A program made the translations under genes and the position numbers. Below are positions 5,866 to 44,287 of a stretch of DNA of 45,588 nucleotides, piece by piece. The notes beneath the pieces are model-generated. The model saw only the letters and a list, made by a program, of their open reading frames with translations. It made no database searches and was not told where the DNA came from. Each line of letters starts with the position of its first letter. Position 1 is the first letter of the stretch. The DNA comes from a virus (taxonomy: Duplodnaviria > Heunggongvirae > Uroviricota > Caudoviricetes), in the IMG/VR virus record IMGVR_UViG_2531839665_000023; one strand, written 5' to 3'.

Positions 5866-6000
5866 TTTGCTGCTCCTCATCATATCGACCCTGCAAGGTC
5901 GGTTGGTTTCTCCACAAAACAGAGAAGAACACCTGCGGTGGCAGCCGCCCGGATGGATTGGGTTATGAACCCGTCGTCCGGTGATGCTCTTCTCTGTTTT

Positions 6001-6048
6001 GTAAAAAGAGCGGTACCAGCCGGAAGCAAGTGTACAAACTGGTACCGC
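6001..6048 (-). terminator. Candidate intrinsic terminator in PL leader (tL-like)
   Basis: Minus strand: GCGGTACCAG - 19-nt loop - CTGGTACCGC followed by TCTTTTT. Confidence 0.5.
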
Positions 6049-6370
6049 CAAAGCAGTGGCTGTTGTGGTGGGGTTGTCACTCAGGCGTATGGTCAACCTG
6101 ACAATCCGGTGTCCTCAACGGGGAAAGAGTAACCCCGCCATACTTACCGCCGCGCCATTTCGCGGATTACCACAACGCTGAGAGCACTTAGCCAGTTACG
6201 GCACCACACTTTGTCGCGGCTCCATAAATGCCCTCATCGTTGCACCCTGGTCTCTTCCCAGGCGTCAAACCGGATCGCCACGCTGGTTAGGCGTCTTATC
6301 AGCATCATCATTGACTTGCACATTCCGGCTACCTGGTTTGTTTGCCCGAGCAAGAAGTGGATTGTCCCCT

Positions 6371-6451
6371 TTAACGTCCCCAGACCGCTAACGACGCATG
6401 TGCCATACGCCGTGTTACAACCAAATTTTGTTTGAATCTTGCCTGCCTCAT
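6371..6451 (-). CDS. Candidate 26-codon Arg-rich mini-ORF at the start of the PL transcript
   Basis: Minus-strand ATG at 6449-6451 about 10 nt downstream of the predicted PL start; encodes MRQARFKQNLVVTRRMAHASLAVWGR; weak ribosome-binding context. Confidence 0.2.
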   Translation of the reverse strand: MRQARFKQNLVVTRRMAHASLAVWGR

Positions 6452-6466
6452 GTTTCTTTTGGATAC

Positions 6467-6494
6467 ATTATGTACCTCATAGGTACATTGTCAA
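6467..6494 (-). promoter_or_regulatory. PL-like early-left promoter
   Basis: Minus strand TTGACA (6489-6494), 16-nt spacer, CATAAT (6467-6472); operator palindrome occupies the spacer. Confidence 0.55.
6471..6487. promoter_or_regulatory. OL operator, 17-bp palindrome TGTACCTCATAGGTACA
   Basis: Same half-sites as the two OR palindromes at 7226 and 7276. Confidence 0.55.
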
Positions 6495-6496
6495 GT

Positions 6497-6520
6497 ATAA
6501 AAAAACCTGCCGAAGCAGGT
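6497..6520 (-). terminator. Intrinsic terminator downstream of cI
   Basis: Minus strand hairpin CCTGC-TTCG-GCAGG followed by a U-run (A-run on plus strand) directly after the cI stop. Confidence 0.7.
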
Positions 6521-6533
6521 TCATAAATATTGA

Positions 6534-7208
6534 TTAGGCCTTTATTGTGTATCTTCTTGGTTTTCCCGAGAAAATCACTGTACCAATTATAGAGCAATTA
6601 CCGTTAATCTTAATGTAAGGCTCAGGCCAGTTTGGGTTTAATGCTTTGAGATAACGCTGTGTTCCATCTTCTATCAATCGCTTGAAGGTGGTTTCGCCTG
6701 TATCGTGCATCAATGCAATAACGTCGTCACCGTGGCAGGCAGGGACTTCGGGATCAACAAAAATCATGTCTCCAGGGCGGTACTCATCAATCATTGAATC
6801 ACCAATCACCCGCAAGATATAAGTCATTTCGCCACAGGGTACAGGGCAGGGATACGTTTCTGCTGTGCTCAAATCAACCTCAGAATAGCCAACTTCTTTC
6901 CATGCTCCGGCCTGTACCCATGATATGACAGGGACTAACGTTATTTGTTTGTTAGTGATTGAAACATCAGGTTTTTTTGTGATGTTCGTTGTCTGGTGTT
7001 CTTGATCAAGCCATCCGACAGGCAGGTCGAAACATTTTTCGATGTGCCGTGCCATGCTGTCACCGATATTTTTAGTAGCGCCATCCCCCATAAACCTGCT
7101 GGTTTGGGTTGGCTCGCGATCAATCATGGTGGCAAAGGATGAATTTCCGCCAACACCATCTCTCAGTTTTCTGGCGTTAGACCGCCGGATGTCATGGATT
7201 GTTTTCAT
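6534..7208 (-). CDS. cI: CI-type prophage repressor, HTH plus S24 LexA-like autopeptidase
   Basis: 224 aa; N-terminal HTH; QAGAW (Ala-Gly cleavage site), GDSM serine and downstream lysine (TFKRL). Confidence 0.9.
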   Translation of the reverse strand: MKTIHDIRRSNARKLRDGVGGNSSFATMIDREPTQTSRFMGDGATKNIGDSMARHIEKCFDLPVGWLDQEHQTTNITKKPDVSITNKQITLVPVISWVQAGAWKEVGYSEVDLSTAETYPCPVPCGEMTYILRVIGDSMIDEYRPGDMIFVDPEVPACHGDDVIALMHDTGETTFKRLIEDGTQRYLKALNPNWPEPYIKINGNCSIIGTVIFSGKPRRYTIKA

Positions 7209-7225
7209 AACGAAATTAAAACCTT

Positions 7226-7242
7226 TGTACCGATAAGGTACA
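7226..7242. promoter_or_regulatory. OR operator, 17-bp palindrome TGTACCGATAAGGTACA
   Basis: Between divergent cI and cro starts; overlaps predicted PRM -35. Confidence 0.55.
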
Positions 7243-7248
7243 AGTATC

Positions 7249-7276
7249 TTGAAGGTTCATTTCAATCATGTAATAT
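7249..7276 (+). promoter_or_regulatory. PR-like early-right promoter
   Basis: TTGAAG (7249-7254), 16-nt spacer, TAATAT (7271-7276), operator immediately downstream. Confidence 0.5.
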
Positions 7277-7292
7277 GTATACCGGAGGTACA
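7276..7292. promoter_or_regulatory. OR operator variant TGTATACCGGAGGTACA
   Basis: Shares GGTACA half-site; covers the predicted PR start site and the cro ribosome-binding site. Confidence 0.5.
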
Positions 7293-7298
7293 TATTGT

Positions 7299-7499
7299 AT
7301 GAAAGCGTATTGGGACTCTTTAACCAAAGAACAGCAGGGCGAGTTGGCCGGAAAAGTTGGCTCAACACCTGGCTACTTACGGCTGGTTTTCAATGGTTAT
7401 AAAAAAGCCAGTTTTGTGCTGGCGAAAAAACTTGAGCAATGCACGTCAGGTGCAATTACGAAATCTGACTTAAGACCGGATATCTATCCGAAAGATTAA
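7299..7499 (+). CDS. cro: Cro-like small HTH regulator
   Basis: 66 aa from the ATG preceded by GGAGGT; divergent from cI across the operator region. Confidence 0.75.
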   Translation: MKAYWDSLTKEQQGELAGKVGSTPGYLRLVFNGYKKASFVLAKKLEQCTSGAITKSDLRPDIYPKD

Positions 7500-7530: not shown

Positions 7531-8094
7531 ATGAGGCTAACCGTGGGTAAGTATCACTGGAAAGTAGAAAAACAGCCTGAGTGGTACGTGAAAGCTGTCA
7601 GAAAAACTATCGCAGCGTTGCCGGGTGGTTACGCTGAAGCAGCTGACTGGCTGGATGTAACAGAGAACGCATTATTTAACCGCCTTCGTGCCGATGGCGA
7701 TCAGATTTTCCCGCTGGGATGGGCAATGGTTTTACAGCGTGCGGCTGGCACTCACTACATTGCGGATGCTGTCGCACAGTCTGCTGGTGGGGTGTTCGTA
7801 TCGCTTCCTGAAATTGAGGAAGTAGAGAACGCCGATATAAACCAGCGCCTGCTGGAAGTCATCGAACAGATCGGGAATTACTCAAAGCAGATTCGTTCGG
7901 CAATCGAAGATGGGGTCGTGGAGCCACACGAGCAGACAGCAATTAATGATGAGTTGTATCTGTCAATTTCGAAGCTCCAGGAGCATGCAGCACTGGTCTA
8001 CAAAATCTTTTGCGCTCCAGAAAAGAGTGACGCCCGCGAGTGTGCAGCTCCGGGCGTCGTGGCGTTTTGTGTCTGTGGAGAAACTAACGCATGA
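7531..8094 (+). CDS. Putative CII-like early regulatory protein
   Basis: 187 aa; position directly after cro; family assignment from memory only. Confidence 0.45.
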   Translation: MRLTVGKYHWKVEKQPEWYVKAVRKTIAALPGGYAEAADWLDVTENALFNRLRADGDQIFPLGWAMVLQRAAGTHYIADAVAQSAGGVFVSLPEIEEVENADINQRLLEVIEQIGNYSKQIRSAIEDGVVEPHEQTAINDELYLSISKLQEHAALVYKIFCAPEKSDARECAAPGVVAFCVCGETNA

Positions 8095-8927
8095 ACAGTT
8101 TAACGGCAAATAACCGTTTGTCGCAACAGCTGGTGGTCAGTGTCGCTGAACACCTGTTGTTACGGCATGAATGCAGATTACCAAATCACCTGGCTGTAAG
8201 TAACCACAGAGAACTTTACCTGACTGTGGGGGGCGAGTTGTGCGGGAACTTAACCGCTGGTTTCGTGACGGAAGAGGGCTTTATGTCCATGTTATTCGTT
8301 GGGAACCAGAAACACAGCGCGTTATCTATCTTCGCAAAGACTACCCGCATGAGTGCTTTAGTCCTTTGTGGAAATTCAGGCGTGATTTTGTTGAGTGTGA
8401 AGGACCACCAGCACATTGATTCTGCCATTCCGGGACGTTACACTGTTCAGGCACCTTATAAAGCGGGTGCCGGGATTGGCGTCCTGGAATTGATCAAGGC
8501 GATATATGACGCGCCAGCGTCTTTTTTATCGTCCGCATTTGCTCACATCAAAGTTATGGTGGGCTGGGCGGGGGCATCGAAAGATGCGCCGGTTTCCTTG
8601 ATCACCGGTTACGCCAACCCCGTTCAGTTCACCACCAGCGAAATTGGCGTTTCCGGTGGTGGAAGTATTTCACCGATCAAGGAGGCTGCCATCATGGCTA
8701 CTGTCCCAGCCCTCACTCGTCTGAATGATGAAGACTTACATAAACTCAGTTATGTAACAACTGCACTACGTGCTCTGCGCAAGGTAACTCTTTCGGATCC
8801 GCAGGCGCATCAGGTTCTGGTAGAAACCCTTCTTAACTTGCAGGCTGAACGTATCCGTTTGGTGGATAAGGCTAATTTTCATATTCACCGTCTCCTGAAT
8901 ATCAGCGGAGGGCATCGTCATGCTTAA
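8091..8927 (+). CDS. Hypothetical protein; ORF of doubtful extent
   Basis: Track ORF; N-terminal third is low-complexity and an alternative frame (8240-8419) reads more protein-like; C-terminal part more convincing. Confidence 0.35.
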   Translation: MNSLTANNRLSQQLVVSVAEHLLLRHECRLPNHLAVSNHRELYLTVGGELCGNLTAGFVTEEGFMSMLFVGNQKHSALSIFAKTTRMSALVLCGNSGVILLSVKDHQHIDSAIPGRYTVQAPYKAGAGIGVLELIKAIYDAPASFLSSAFAHIKVMVGWAGASKDAPVSLITGYANPVQFTTSEIGVSGGGSISPIKEAAIMATVPALTRLNDEDLHKLSYVTTALRALRKVTLSDPQAHQVLVETLLNLQAERIRLVDKANFHIHRLLNISGGHRHA

Positions 8928-15447: not shown

Positions 15448-15747
15448 AAAAATTCCTTAATACTGATAACTGGGCGCACTATACACACGTTCCTGAAGAA
15501 AGCTATAGTTTTTTGATGGGGTTGAAGATGGCTGGATGTCTAAAATAAACATTGCTTCATATGTTCAACTATGCGTTAATGATTGCGTCGGTTTGAAGAA
15601 CAGACGATATACGAAGTAGTTTACTAAAGCAGTTCTCATTTCAGGTGTTATTCACTTATTCCTTCTTTGAGTCTCTCCAATTAAGTACGAAGTCGTTTCT
15701 GTTATACAAGCCATTTATGCCGAAAGGCTCAAGTTAAGGAATGTAGA

Positions 15748-15963
15748 ATGTCAAATAAAATGACTGGTTTAGTAAAATGGTTTAACGCTGATAAAGGTTT
15801 TGGCTTTATTTCTCCTGTTGATGGTAGTAAAGATGTGTTTGTGCATTTTTCTGCGATTCAGAATGATAATTTTCGAACCTTATTTGAAGGTCAAAAGGTT
15901 ACCTTCTCTGTAGAGAGTGGTGCTAAAGGTCCTGCAGCAGCAAATGTCATAATTACTGATTAA
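15748..15963 (+). CDS. cspB: Cold-shock protein, CspB-like
   Basis: 71 aa; [21 protein letters not shown] with RNP motifs; csp-type leader with GCCGAAAGGC box before the Shine-Dalgarno. Confidence 0.9.
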
Positions 15964-16245
15964 AATTCATAGTTTGTCTGTATACGATAACGAAGAAGGC
16001 TGATGCCTGAGTGGAGATACAGACTGAGTGGTGAATATTGGATCTCTTTAATAAATAGTAAGGAGGTCCAATACATGAAACAATGGCCAGCATATTTGGC
16101 AATAACTTAATCAGGAAAAGTATGCTAACCATTGTGGTGAAGTGCAGGTTTGCTGCATGAATAGTTTTACAGCAGAAGCTAACTGCTGGCATAGCAAAAC
16201 AAAGTGCGTAAGTGGATGACTCCCACAAAAAGTACCACAATATTA

Positions 16246-16497: not shown

Positions 16498-16715
16498 AGG
16501 CTTTTCCTGTATAAATGGCCGTATACAGTACACTAAATATGAAAACATATCTCGTATTATTATTTAATATATGATTTTCTTTTAAAATAATTACCCACAT
16601 TTTTAATGTGTCTGTTTTTTAGCGCCGTTGAGAACAACGTTTGCTATAAAAACTAACCCATAGACTCCGATCTTTTCAAACATATTGCACCATCTGTGTA
16701 CATCGGGGTGAGGAT

Positions 16716-16935: not shown

Positions 16936-17487
16936 ATGACACAAGACTATGAACTGGTTGTGAAAGGAGTCCGCAATTTTGAGAATAAAGTGGCGGTAAC
17001 TGTAGCCTTACGGGACAAAAAACGCTTTGACGGTGAAATTTTTGACCTGGACATCTCGCTGGACCGTGTTGAAGGTGCCGCGCTGGAGTTTTATGAGGCA
17101 GCAGCCAGAATGAGAATCAGACAGGTATTCCTGGATGTTGCTGCCGGGTTATGTGTAGGGGATGAGCAGTCGCCGGAAAAGCGCCCCATAATTTTAGAGG
17201 CGCAGAATGTGTGGATAACCTACAAAGGAAAGCTACCGGGAAGAATTACTGGTTCTCTGAAGACGCCACCGACGGCATTGCGGTCAGAAAAAGATGATAT
17301 TGAATCGCCCATTGAAAAACTGGAGGGCAGCGTCGCTGATCTGAATAAAAAATTGTCGGTGCTGATCCCTTCTGAAGATGAAAAAAAACGCCGCGATGAG
17401 CAGTTTGCGGCGTTTTACGATTATTGCATTGAAGTTACTCGCAGGAATTTTGTGAAGATTTTTGAGGAGGGTAAATCTCTTCAGTAA
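16936..17487 (+). CDS. Hypothetical lysis-cassette protein (DUF1327/YdfR-like by position)
   Basis: ATG at 16936 directly after the holin stop; 183 aa; family assignment tentative. Confidence 0.55.
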   Translation: MTQDYELVVKGVRNFENKVAVTVALRDKKRFDGEIFDLDISLDRVEGAALEFYEAAARMRIRQVFLDVAAGLCVGDEQSPEKRPIILEAQNVWITYKGKLPGRITGSLKTPPTALRSEKDDIESPIEKLEGSVADLNKKLSVLIPSEDEKKRRDEQFAAFYDYCIEVTRRNFVKIFEEGKSLQ

Positions 17488-18836: not shown

Positions 18837-19199
18837 ATTAATATTAAATCGGATTATTTTTAGCGCTGAATGTGAAATTTAAATAAAAAGGACTCTTCCA
18901 TGAGTCAAAATCCTTGAAATCTTAAGGGTAAGATAAAAGGTCATTAGACAGAATGACACGTTTTATTAATAAATAAAGCTATTGTTTCATTCGTGTGTTT
19001 TTCTTTACAAAAGTAATCCTTGCTATGGTTGGTTAATCATGCGTTAATGGTGTTCTGGTTTGTTACAAAATTATCTGAAGCAGTCATTGTTATAATTTTA
19101 TTATTTGTACCTCTTGAGATCTCCTTGTTGGTTTTTCTCTCTGATATTTTTTTTCGGACCATTCTGCCCAAGGGCTAACTTCTTCAAAAGGTAATAATG

Positions 19200-19412
19200 A
19201 TGTCTAACAAAATGACTGGTTTAGTGAAATGGTTTAACCCTGAAAAAGGTTTTGGTTTCATCACGCCGAAAGATGGTAGCAAAGATGTGTTTGTCCATTT
19301 CTCAGTTATTCAGAGCAACGATTTCAAAACGTTAACTGAGAATCAGGAAGTCGAATTTGGTATTGAGAACGGACCTAAAGGCCCCGCGGCTGTTCATGTA
19401 GTGGCACTTTGA
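19200..19412 (+). CDS. cspI: Cold-shock protein, CspI-like
   Basis: 70 aa; [34 protein letters not shown]. Confidence 0.9.
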
Positions 19413-19616
19413 GGTAGAAAATATTACAAACCATATTCACTTTAGATGCCCGTGTTGCCATGGTTCTCAGTATAGAACATCATCTTTTGATGTTTCTGAC
19501 AGGAATCCTTTCGGGGCAAAATGTATCTTTTGTAAATCAATGATGATTACATTTGATAATATTTCACAATACTTAAATGTTAGCCGTCTGTCGTTAGATT
19601 TAAGAAAGTGAAAATG

Positions 19617-25638: not shown

Positions 25639-27597
25639 ATGCAGGCAGGTCACCAGAGTGACGCGGATATTTATATTTATGACGAGATTGGTTTCTGGGG
25701 TGTTACGGCGAAGCAGTTTATCAGTGATCTGAATGCACTGGGCGATATCACCCACATTAATCTCCATATTAATTCACCGGGTGGCGATGTCTTTGAAGGC
25801 ATCGCCATTTTTAATGCACTGAAAACACATGGTGCGTCCATTACCGTTTATGTCGACGGTGTGGCGGCGTCAATGGCGTCGGTCATTGCGATGGTGGGAA
25901 ACCCGGTCATTATGCCGGAAAACTCCTTCATGATGATTCATAAACCATTTGGCTTTACGGGCGGTGATGCGGAGGACATGCGCACCTATGCCGACCTGCT
26001 CGATAAAGTTGAGGCGGTTCTGTTACCCGCTTATGCACAGAAAACCGGGAAAACCACCGATGAAATTGCTGCCATGCTGGCGGATGAGACCTGGATGTCC
26101 GGTGCCGAATGTCTGGCACAGGGATTTGCTGATCAGGTGACACCAGCCGTTAAGGCAATGGCATGTATTCAGTCAAAACGTACAGAGGAATTTAAAAAGA
26201 TGCCGGAATCCATTCGAAATATGATTACTCCGCCACGCAACAGTGCTCCACGCGTACAGGATGATGGACCTGCAGCCTCCCGGACGCCAGTGCAGGCAGC
26301 AGCACCCGTGGTGGATGAAAACAGCATCCGTGCGCAGGTCCTGGCAGAGCAAAAAGCGCGTGTAAACGGTATTAATGATCTGTTTGCCATGTTTGGTGGG
26401 CGTTATCAGTCGCTGCAGGCTCAGTGTCTTGCCGATCCTGAATGTTCGCTGGAGCAGGCCCGCGAAAAGCTGTTGAACGAGATGGGGCGCGAGTCCACGC
26501 CATCCAATAAAAATACCCCGGCTCATATTTATGCCGGTAACGGTAATTTTGTGGGGGACGGGATCCGCCAGGCGCTGATGGCGCGCGCCGGGTTTGAAAA
26601 AACCGAACGTGATAATGTCTACAACGGGATGACCCTGCGTGAATATGCCCGTATGTCACTGACTGAACGTGGTATTGGTGTTTCCAGTTATAACCCGATG
26701 CAGATGGTCGGTGCGGCGTTCACACACAGTACGTCTGACTTCGGTAATATTCTGCTGGATGTTGCGAACAAAGCCATTCTGCAGGGCTGGGAAGATGCCC
26801 CTGAAACCTATGAACAGTGGACGCGGAAAGGTCAGTTGTCTGATTTTAAAATTGCCCATCGTGTGGGTATGGGGGGCTTCAGTGCTCTGCGTCAGGTGCG
26901 TGAAGGGGCAGAATATAAATACGTCACCACCGGAGATAAACAGGCCACTATTGCACTGGCGACCTATGGCGAGCTGTTCAGTATCACCCGTCAGGCCATT
27001 ATCAATGATGATCTGAATATGCTGACCGATGTCCCGATGAAGCTGGGCCGTGCGGCGAAATCCACTATTGCCGATCTGGTTTATGCCATTCTGACGTCTA
27101 ACCCGAAAATCTCCACAGATAATGTAAGTCTGTTCGATAAAGCGAAACATGCAAACGTACTGGAGAGCGCGGCAATGGACGTGGCATCGCTGGATAAAGC
27201 CCGCCAGTTGATGCGCGTTCAGAAAGAGGGTGAGCGTCATCTGAATATTCGTCCTGCGTTCGTACTGGTACCGACGGCGATGGAGTCTGTTGCTAACCAG
27301 GTCATTCGCTCCTCAAGTGTCAAGGGGGCTGACATTAACGCCGGTATTATTAACCCGGTGAAAGATTTTGCGACCGTTATTGCAGAGCCTCGTCTTGATG
27401 ATAACAGCCAGACCACCTTCTACCTGGCTGCGTCCAAAGGCTCCGATACGATTGAAGTGGCTTATCTCAACGGTGTGGATACGCCATATATTGATCAGAT
27501 GGAGGGCTTCAGTGTGGATGGCGTGACAACGAAAGTACGTATTGACGCTGGTGTTGCGCCAGTTGATCACCGCGGCCTGGTGAAATGTACGGCGTAA
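25639..27597 (+). CDS. ClpP/S49-like head maturation protease fused to major capsid protein
   Basis: 652 aa; N-terminal protease region (HINSPGGDVFEG...SMAS), coiled middle, C-terminal capsid-like region. Confidence 0.8.
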   Translation: MQAGHQSDADIYIYDEIGFWGVTAKQFISDLNALGDITHINLHINSPGGDVFEGIAIFNALKTHGASITVYVDGVAASMASVIAMVGNPVIMPENSFMMIHKPFGFTGGDAEDMRTYADLLDKVEAVLLPAYAQKTGKTTDEIAAMLADETWMSGAECLAQGFADQVTPAVKAMACIQSKRTEEFKKMPESIRNMITPPRNSAPRVQDDGPAASRTPVQAAAPVVDENSIRAQVLAEQKARVNGINDLFAMFGGRYQSLQAQCLADPECSLEQAREKLLNEMGRESTPSNKNTPAHIYAGNGNFVGDGIRQALMARAGFEKTERDNVYNGMTLREYARMSLTERGIGVSSYNPMQMVGAAFTHSTSDFGNILLDVANKAILQGWEDAPETYEQWTRKGQLSDFKIAHRVGMGGFSALRQVREGAEYKYVTTGDKQATIALATYGELFSITRQAIINDDLNMLTDVPMKLGRAAKSTIADLVYAILTSNPKISTDNVSLFDKAKHANVLESAAMDVASLDKARQLMRVQKEGERHLNIRPAFVLVPTAMESVANQVIRSSSVKGADINAGIINPVKDFATVIAEPRLDDNSQTTFYLAASKGSDTIEVAYLNGVDTPYIDQMEGFSVDGVTTKVRIDAGVAPVDHRGLVKCTA

Positions 27598-43712: not shown

Positions 43713-44287
43713 TGGCATTCAGAATGAGTGAACAACCACGGACCATAAAAATTTATAATCTGCTGGCCGGAACTAATGAATTTATTGGTGAAGGTGACGC
43801 ATATATTCCGCCTCATACAGGTCTGCCAGCAAACAGTACCGATATTGCACCGCCAGATATTCCGGCAGGCTTCGTGGCTGTTTTCAACAGTGATGAGGCA
43901 TCGTGGCATCTCGTTGAAGACCATCGGGGTAAAACGGTTTATGACGTAGCGTCAGGGGACGCGTTATTTATTTCTGAACTCGGTCCGTTACCGGAAAATG
44001 TTACCTGGTTATCGCCGGAAGGGGAGTTTCAGAAGTGGAACGGCACAGCCTGGGTGAAAGATGCAGAAGCAGAAAAACTGTTCCGGATCCGGGAGGCGGA
44101 AGAAACAAAAAACAGCCTGATGCAGGTAGCCAGTGAGCATATTGCGCCGCTTCAGGATGCTGCAGATCTGGAAATTGCAACGGAGGAAGAAATCTCGTTG
44201 CTGGAAGCATGGAAAAAGTATCGGGTATTGCTGAACCGTGTTGATACGTCAACTGCACAGGATATTGAATGGCCAGCACTGCCGTAG
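43712..44287 (+). CDS. tfa: Tail fibre assembly protein Tfa
   Basis: 191 aa; near-identical to lambda Tfa as recalled ([24 protein letters not shown]); TAATG overlap with stf stop. Confidence 0.9.

Follow-up and report, generated by a model that had tools for sequence, protein, structure and literature searches.

Five predicted operators of the CI/Cro switch in a prophage immunity region of the e14/SfV group

The palindromes that flank the cI/cro pair of this prophage are very probably repressor-binding operators of a known prophage switch, as far as can be judged from the sequence. They form part of a set of five predicted sites, which we read as the operators of a lambda-type bistable switch in the immunity region of the e14/SfV group (YmfK/CohE, YmfT/CroE). 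We put the probability of this reading at roughly 0.85. The immunity region is already known and is already annotated as a putative operator region, and the preliminary description of its sites in the window (the whole stretch of 45,588 nucleotides that was analysed) is incomplete. It had proposed three palindromes as the operator set of the S24-type repressor, and with this as the basis of its immunity specificity. The comparison strongly supports the core of that proposal through the fixed positions, the half-sites, their covariation and their uniqueness, but two sites, here called ORb and OL2, had been missed. The features of the region are, from left to right:

6451..6467, OL2, degenerate operator (TGTTTCTTTTGGATACA), in the PL orientation TGTATC-CAAAA-GAAACA, at about -7 to +10 of PL
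6467..6494, minus strand, promoter PL, with -35 TTGACA (6494 to 6489), a 16-nt spacer and -10 CATAAT (6472 to 6467)
6471..6487, OL1, perfect operator TGTACC-TCATA-GGTACA, in the PL spacer and the first two bases of the -10
6503..6522, minus strand, intrinsic terminator after the repressor gene, from the terminator scan and annotated in the SfV and Ayreon records
6534..7208, minus strand, repressor gene, 224 amino acids, N-terminal HTH and C-terminal S24 autocleavage domain
7215..7243, minus strand, promoter PRM, with -35 TTGTAC (7243 to 7238), a 17-nt spacer and -10 TTTAAT (7220 to 7215)
7226..7242, ORa, perfect operator TGTACC-GATAA-GGTACA, at -34 to -18 of PRM and -57 to -41 of PR
7243..7259, ORb, degenerate operator AGTATC-TTGAA-GGTTCA, adjoining ORa, with its centre at -43 of PRM
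7249..7276, plus strand, promoter PR, with -35 TTGAAG (7249-7254), a 16-nt spacer and -10 TAATAT (7271-7276)
7276..7292, ORc, imperfect operator TGTATA-CCGGA-GGTACA, at about -7 to +10 of PR
7299..7499, plus strand, cro, 66 amino acids, YdaS-like HTH, ortholog of e14 YmfT/CroE

The sequence TGTACC-N5-GGTACA was found exactly at 6471-6487 (TGTACCTCATAGGTACA) and 7226-7242 (TGTACCGATAAGGTACA). The third palindrome, 7276-7292 (TGTATACCGGAGGTACA), was thought to carry the same half-sites, but it has two mismatches, both in the left half (TGTATA). When up to two mismatches were allowed, we counted six matches against 1.02 expected, and none of 100 shuffles reached six, which excludes a chance origin of the palindromes. 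The window contains 28 perfect inverted repeats of the 6-N5-6 type, and only those at 6471-6487 and 7226-7242 have a half-site in common.

We then scored 45,568 positions of the window with a position weight matrix, for which the ORa and OL1 sites from other genera were the only training set. The five sites took the first five ranks (OL1 28.8, ORa 25.6, OL2 15.1, ORc 14.4 and ORb 12.7). In a 17-mer matrix, the weak sites OL2, ORc and ORb had per-position P values of 2e-6 to 7e-6, with a score of 12.4 and P of 2.4e-6 for OL2 and P of 7.4e-6 for ORb. Beyond the five sites, none in the whole window scored above chance, and the next score, 8.0, equalled the mean shuffle maximum. A motif search of the rest of the prophage, which had been suggested as a check, thus gave no credible site outside the immunity region. 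We rejected 17001-17017 (8.0) and 16686-16702 (5.6) as extra operators because both lie inside the shuffle range. Single half-sites within the repressor gene (6579, 6838 and 6913) were also rejected, as they have no partner half-site.

The centres of OL2 and OL1 are 20 bp apart, those of ORa and ORb 17 bp, of ORb and ORc 33 bp, and of OL1 and ORa 755 bp. The 50 bp previously given for the distance between the two OR sites is right for ORa and ORc (centres 7234 to 7284), but ORb lies between them. The presence of ORb and OL2 makes OR a triplet, with spacings of 17 and 33 bp, and OL a doublet. The view that there are only two OR sites, and that OR is for this reason unlike the lambda triplet, is therefore wrong.

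All three of the palindromes described before overlap a promoter element, as had been stated: 6471-6487 lies in PL, 7226-7242 in PRM and 7276-7292 at the end of the PR -10. PL matched at 11 of 12 positions in the promoter scan, and its TTGACA and CATAAT are kept in relatives. OL1 fills the PL spacer, and OL2 begins at the last base of the PL -10. The predicted start of PL is near 6460. Neither PR nor PRM was called by the scan (at most 8 of 12 matches), so both calls rest on conservation and on a published leaderless mRNA. The ymfK mRNA of K-12 was mapped as leaderless (PMC4681348), and the K-12 e14 sequence is the same as the window across 7206-7223, the stretch with the PRM -10 and the ATG. 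This fixes PRM, with its start at or near the A of the repressor ATG (7208), and places ORa on PRM. From the geometry of PRM, ORa extends from -34 to -18 and covers the -35 and the spacer, with ORb centred at -43. Relatives carry a T.TAAT hexamer exactly 6 nt 5' of the repressor ATG.

On the other strand, PR would start near 7281-7284, and relatives keep its geometry as TTGnnG-16-TAATAT or CATAAT. The ORb spacer plus one base makes up the PR -35. The last base of ORb is an invariant "mismatch" which creates the TTG of the PRM -35. The first base of ORc is the last of the PR -10, and the cro Shine-Dalgarno sequence GGAGG (7284-7288) lies within ORc. Several dyad sites with one consensus are thus found only in the immunity region, where they overlap PL, PR and PRM, as in a lambdoid operator set.

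Inverted repeats close to promoters could also be RNA hairpins, that is terminators or attenuators, and not protein-binding sites, and the terminator scan did flag 7243 to 7225 on the minus strand as terminator-like. However, what looks like a T-run after ORa is the PRM -10, and relatives have no T-run in that place. Both OL1 and ORa are upstream of where transcription starts. It is the half-site sequence that is kept and not mere complementarity, we saw no compensatory changes, and the degenerate sites hold their half-site identity without pairing. The compensated stem with a U-tract inside a transcript, as expected of an intrinsic terminator, was not found at these sites. We consider the hairpin explanation extremely improbable, and operators remain the preferred reading.

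Next, we compared the region across relatives. A scan of one genome per species gave 73 loci with repressor homologs, and the 30 loci with a full-length homolog and the same recognition helix were taken as the comparison set. Their repressors range from 100% to 42% identity, and the set spans Enterobacterales, Halomonadaceae and Salinivibrio. Counted from the repressor start, the 30 loci have sites at -34, -51 and -84; counted from the repressor stop, they have sites at about +52 and +72. The site at -34 (ORa) is perfect in 18 of them. The site at -51 (ORb) reads TGAACC-N5-GGTACT in relatives, and the site at -84 (ORc) is present in all relatives, always 50 bp from ORa. OL1 keeps a constant offset from the PL -35 in all 30 loci. 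At the OL2 position, most Enterobacterales loci have TGTACC-N5-G(A/C)AACA. OL2 is missing from seven loci (L008, L011, L014, L015 and L026-L028), and its absence in several relatives counts against the switch reading.

Among the 24 distinct Enterobacterales rows, the information per column is 1.96 and 1.84 bits in the two ORa half-sites and 0.31 bits in the ORa spacer, and the half-sites of ORb and ORc hold 1.5-1.9 bits per column. Since the conserved bases of ORb and ORc overlap the PR -35, the PRM -35 and the cro Shine-Dalgarno sequence, their conservation has partly another cause. Across relatives the N5 spacers vary freely and the half-sites are kept.

In five loci from Salinicola, Halomonas, Salinivibrio and Phytohalomonas (L030-L032, L034 and L036), we observed an OL-like promoter and operator 0.9-1.6 kb past the repressor stop, compared with about 50 bp elsewhere. 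These loci also have an extra degenerate site 5' of the -35, and their ORb and ORa overlap by one base (16 bp between centres), with ORa and ORc still 50 bp apart.

Where the predicted recognition helix changes, the half-site changes too. Four Halomonadaceae relatives (Halomonas and Chromohalobacter) with the helix PSYISRCL keep the three-site layout and have the half-sites ATTACC/GGTAAT with N4. One relative with the helix STISQITS has TTAGCG/CGCTAA, and short Thiomicrospira and Hydrogenovibrio relatives have TG(A/C)ACC-AATT-GGTCAT. The half-site thus covaries with phage HTH proteins, which ties the sites to phage proteins and not to a host factor. A host protein, LexA or a CRP-like TGT-N-ACA binder, was nevertheless worth weighing, as the outer TGT...ACA resembles several host-factor motifs. 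Neither a CTG-N10-CAG LexA core nor the CTGT-N8-ACAG core of an SOS box is present in any of the five sites, the motif is confined to the immunity region, and in the Halomonas relatives a different half-site goes with different phage-encoded HTH proteins. Binding by a host factor is therefore very unlikely.

The covariation does not tell CI from Cro. Cro homologs are present at every locus, and the Cro recognition helix is altered in parallel wherever the half-site is altered, so either protein, or both, could be the reader. Cro (YmfT) might accordingly be the sole reader of the palindromes, or CI and Cro might both read them and differ widely in the sites they prefer, and the S24 operators would then be a subset of these sites or overlap with them in another way. 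The position of the strongest OR site over PRM would suit this, since this is where lambda Cro binds best. On the other side, characterised lambdoid switches share their operators between both proteins, OL1 and OL2 at PL with three OR sites make the classic repressor layout, and the predicted recognition helix of the repressor is nearly invariant in all loci that keep GTACC. We regard this alternative as improbable, and sites that serve the repressor remain our preferred reading. The GTACC-N5-GGTAC specificity appears to be fixed from Enterobacterales to Halomonadaceae and Salinivibrio, among repressors that have diverged to about 42-52% identity. Such constancy would be out of the ordinary for phage immunity, where diversification is normally fast.

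The repressor is an ortholog of e14 YmfK/CohE and SfV CI and is identical to K-12 YmfK at 223 of 224 residues. Its residues 93-212 match Pfam Peptidase_S24 (PF00717, 1.5e-26), and the C-terminal domain matches that of lambda CI (1.8e-9). Ser138 (GDS138M) and Lys176 (TFK176RL) are nearly invariant among 33 homologs, and K176 aligns with the lysine of the lambda TFKK. The linker VQA100-G101AW contains the Ala-Gly cleavage site that goes with this dyad. In the AlphaFold model (pLDDT 77), the N-terminal domain has four helices (4-19, 22-28, 33-40 and 50-59), and the best PDB match of the model is full-length lambda repressor (3BDN, E 1e-9). Residues 33-40, PTQTSRFM, are the predicted recognition helix. 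The N-terminal domain gave no Pfam HTH match at E<=0.01, but residues 1-75 are weakly similar to Rep of Salmonella phage SPC32H (E 4.7e-4), which Foldseek also matched. Cro is identical to K-12 YmfT at 65 of 66 residues, and its matches to Pfam YdaS_toxin (1.5e-5) and HTH_3 are both under the curated cut-off. Related loci have a homologous divergent cro gene. Downstream of cro lie a CII(CP76)-like gene and then an Ash-family gene.

From these features, the switch could work as follows. The HTH-S24 repressor as a dimer, and probably Cro too, would recognise the 17-bp dyad TGTACC-N5-GGTACA. In the lysogen, repressor at OL1 and OL2 would block PL, and repressor at ORb and ORc would block PR, with ORc covering the PR start and the cro ribosome-binding site. 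ORb, at -43 of PRM, is placed like OR2 of lambda, where bound CI activates PRM, and it may stimulate PRM here. Occupancy of ORa would shut off repressor synthesis by autorepression of PRM. Induction would come from RecA-stimulated self-cleavage of the repressor, which on SOS would be cut at Ala100-Gly101 through Ser138/Lys176 and release the operators. The excision of e14 is SOS-induced. In this scheme, we infer the protein that binds, the filling order, activation from ORb, autorepression at ORa, and any cooperativity or OL-OR looping.

The best site lies over PRM, the reverse of the lambda affinity order, so a lambda-like filling order may not hold. The ORa-ORb spacing of 17 bp corresponds to 1.6 turns, which is odd for lambda-style cooperativity and counts against it. 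This leaves room for the idea that the e14/SfV switch is wired unlike lambda, so that tight negative autoregulation, and not OR1/OR2 cooperativity, sets the lysogenic state. It would build on three points: ORa, the best and most conserved operator, sits on a leaderless PRM; two weaker sites, 33 bp from each other, hold PR; and ORa directly adjoins ORb, with 17 bp between centres, on a different face of the helix. We offer the idea tentatively, and consider it possible rather than likely.

The DNA to the left of OL2 showed further features. A mosaic junction lies at 6432-6450, directly beside OL2, and to its left the window is a 99% match to phages of other immunity types. In the same place, K-12 e14 and SfV carry another sequence (CAGGCAGGACGCCCACGAAGTAGCCGCC), which is kept in the PL leaders of many relatives. 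The position of this junction with the neighbouring module, directly beside OL2, was counted in favour of the switch reading.

The PL leader, 5869-6460 on the minus strand, is about 590 nt long and poor in ORFs, and it folds far better than its shuffles (z = -4.9). Its core, 6222-6419 on the minus strand, is a conserved structured element of about 190 nt. Homologs of the element were found between trnI and ban in P1, beside tRNA-Arg in the epsilon15-like phages phiV10, SPC32H and Tyrion, in D6, and in mEp390 downstream of a different LexA-family repressor. Others are in the PL leaders of two loci of our set (L008 and L011) and in those of phages and prophages with other repressors. All copies are on the strand equivalent to the window minus strand, the one that PL transcribes. 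The reading frame is not preserved, so the element is apparently non-coding. Over 7 sequences, compensatory changes occur in 9 of the 34 predicted pairs, and paired cells make up 95.8%, compared with 29-43% in slid controls. It had no match in Rfam 15 at E<=1, and nhmmer gave no copy in HK022 at 20-32 kb, the stretch expected to hold the immunity region and the put sites. The element is a candidate for an undescribed phage RNA motif, and a role in antitermination or in RNA processing would be a guess.

Three other observations concern the window outside the operators. ORF 8091-8927 is the Ash-family 'immunity region' ORF (orf37 of SfV). Inside it, Rfam matches to isrK (64 bits, 8451-8527) and to C4 antisense RNA (82 bits, 8552-8639) lie side by side, which suggests an antisense-RNA control element of the P1/P7 c4 type beside the CI/Cro switch. 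TGTACA occurs four times in 320-377 (at 320, 332, 341 and 371), and the perfect palindrome TTGTACATAATGTACAA (331-347) includes one of the copies. This cluster stands just upstream of an ATG at 387 that may be the start of an integrase gene. Its spacing is unrelated to that of the operators, and it may be a separate regulatory or recombination site. Lastly, two cspA-thermoregulator matches (leaders like those of cold-shock proteins) and one IS009 RNA match were located at 15587-16026, 19053-19458 and 44055-44253.

This immunity type is common. Of 5426 complete E. coli genomes, 1324 carry the 871-bp region at >=90% identity, K-12 (e14) among them. Its carriers include the serotype-converting Shigella phages SfV and SfIV, the cytolethal-distending-toxin phage cdtI and Stx2c-converting phages. 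Among these carriers, the five-site map predicts which phages are homo-immune, and it shows where repression would act on PR and, through PR, on the toxin or conversion genes downstream. It offers defined targets for mutagenesis and reporter assays, and adds no new principle.

The immunity region is common to e14, SfV/SfIV, cdtI, 2H10, Ayreon and Stx2c-converting phages. Its DNA is 96-99% identical to that of 2H10, Ayreon, cdtI, the Stx2c-converting phages, SfV and SfIV and 95% identical to that of K-12 e14, and the window has the near-identical repressor, Cro and intergenic control DNA of the e14/SfV group. In the defective K-12 prophage e14 (ymfK/cohE - ymfT/croE) and in SfV/SfIV (cI-cro), the five sites are at the same places. 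The GenBank record of SfV annotates 26377-26445 as 'putative operator region', which is exactly ORa to ORc with 1 nt on each side. K-12 e14 and SfV show only point differences from the window, and the ORa spacer and the left half of ORc are among what differs. With the same repressor, strength at OL is seemingly traded between sites: OL1 is perfect and OL2 weak (GGATACA) in the window, while in K-12 e14 and SfV OL1 is weaker (TGTATC) and OL2 stronger (GGGTACA). In the literature that was searched on the motif, the ymfK operator and cohE/croE, no binding experiment was found, and the gSELEX paper names YmfK and CroE but gives no sites for them.

SPC32H Rep and the Gifsy-type repressors (PDB 5D50) have a weakly similar N-terminal DNA-binding domain. 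They differ in having no S24 domain and in being inactivated by antirepressors; the Gifsy antirepressor paper gives no operator sequences.

The Shiga-toxin phage 933W has a lambdoid switch with the same numbers of sites. Tyler, Mills and Friedman are said to have demonstrated in 2004, by binding experiments, that it has three OR sites and only two OL sites. Its operator sequence and repressor specificity are unrelated to those described here, and its binding is experimental, whereas ours is predicted.

The switch also resembles that of lambda. Like lambda, it has 17-bp dyad operators and a repressor of the HTH plus S24 kind, whose C-terminal domain and overall fold are lambda-like. In both, PRM and PR diverge from an OR of three sites, the middle one of which covers the PR -35 and sits near -42/-43 of PRM, and the repressor is translated from a leaderless mRNA. 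Past the repressor gene come a terminator and then PL. The differences are that the half-sites here have another sequence and that there are two OL sites, compared with three in lambda. The centre spacings in OR are 17 and 33 bp in the window and about 24 and 23 bp in lambda, and OL and OR are 755 bp apart here, compared with about 2.3 kb in lambda. Cro is of the YdaS type, and the N-terminal domain of the repressor is closest to SPC32H Rep. The best match to the consensus lies over PRM here, whereas in lambda it lies over PR.
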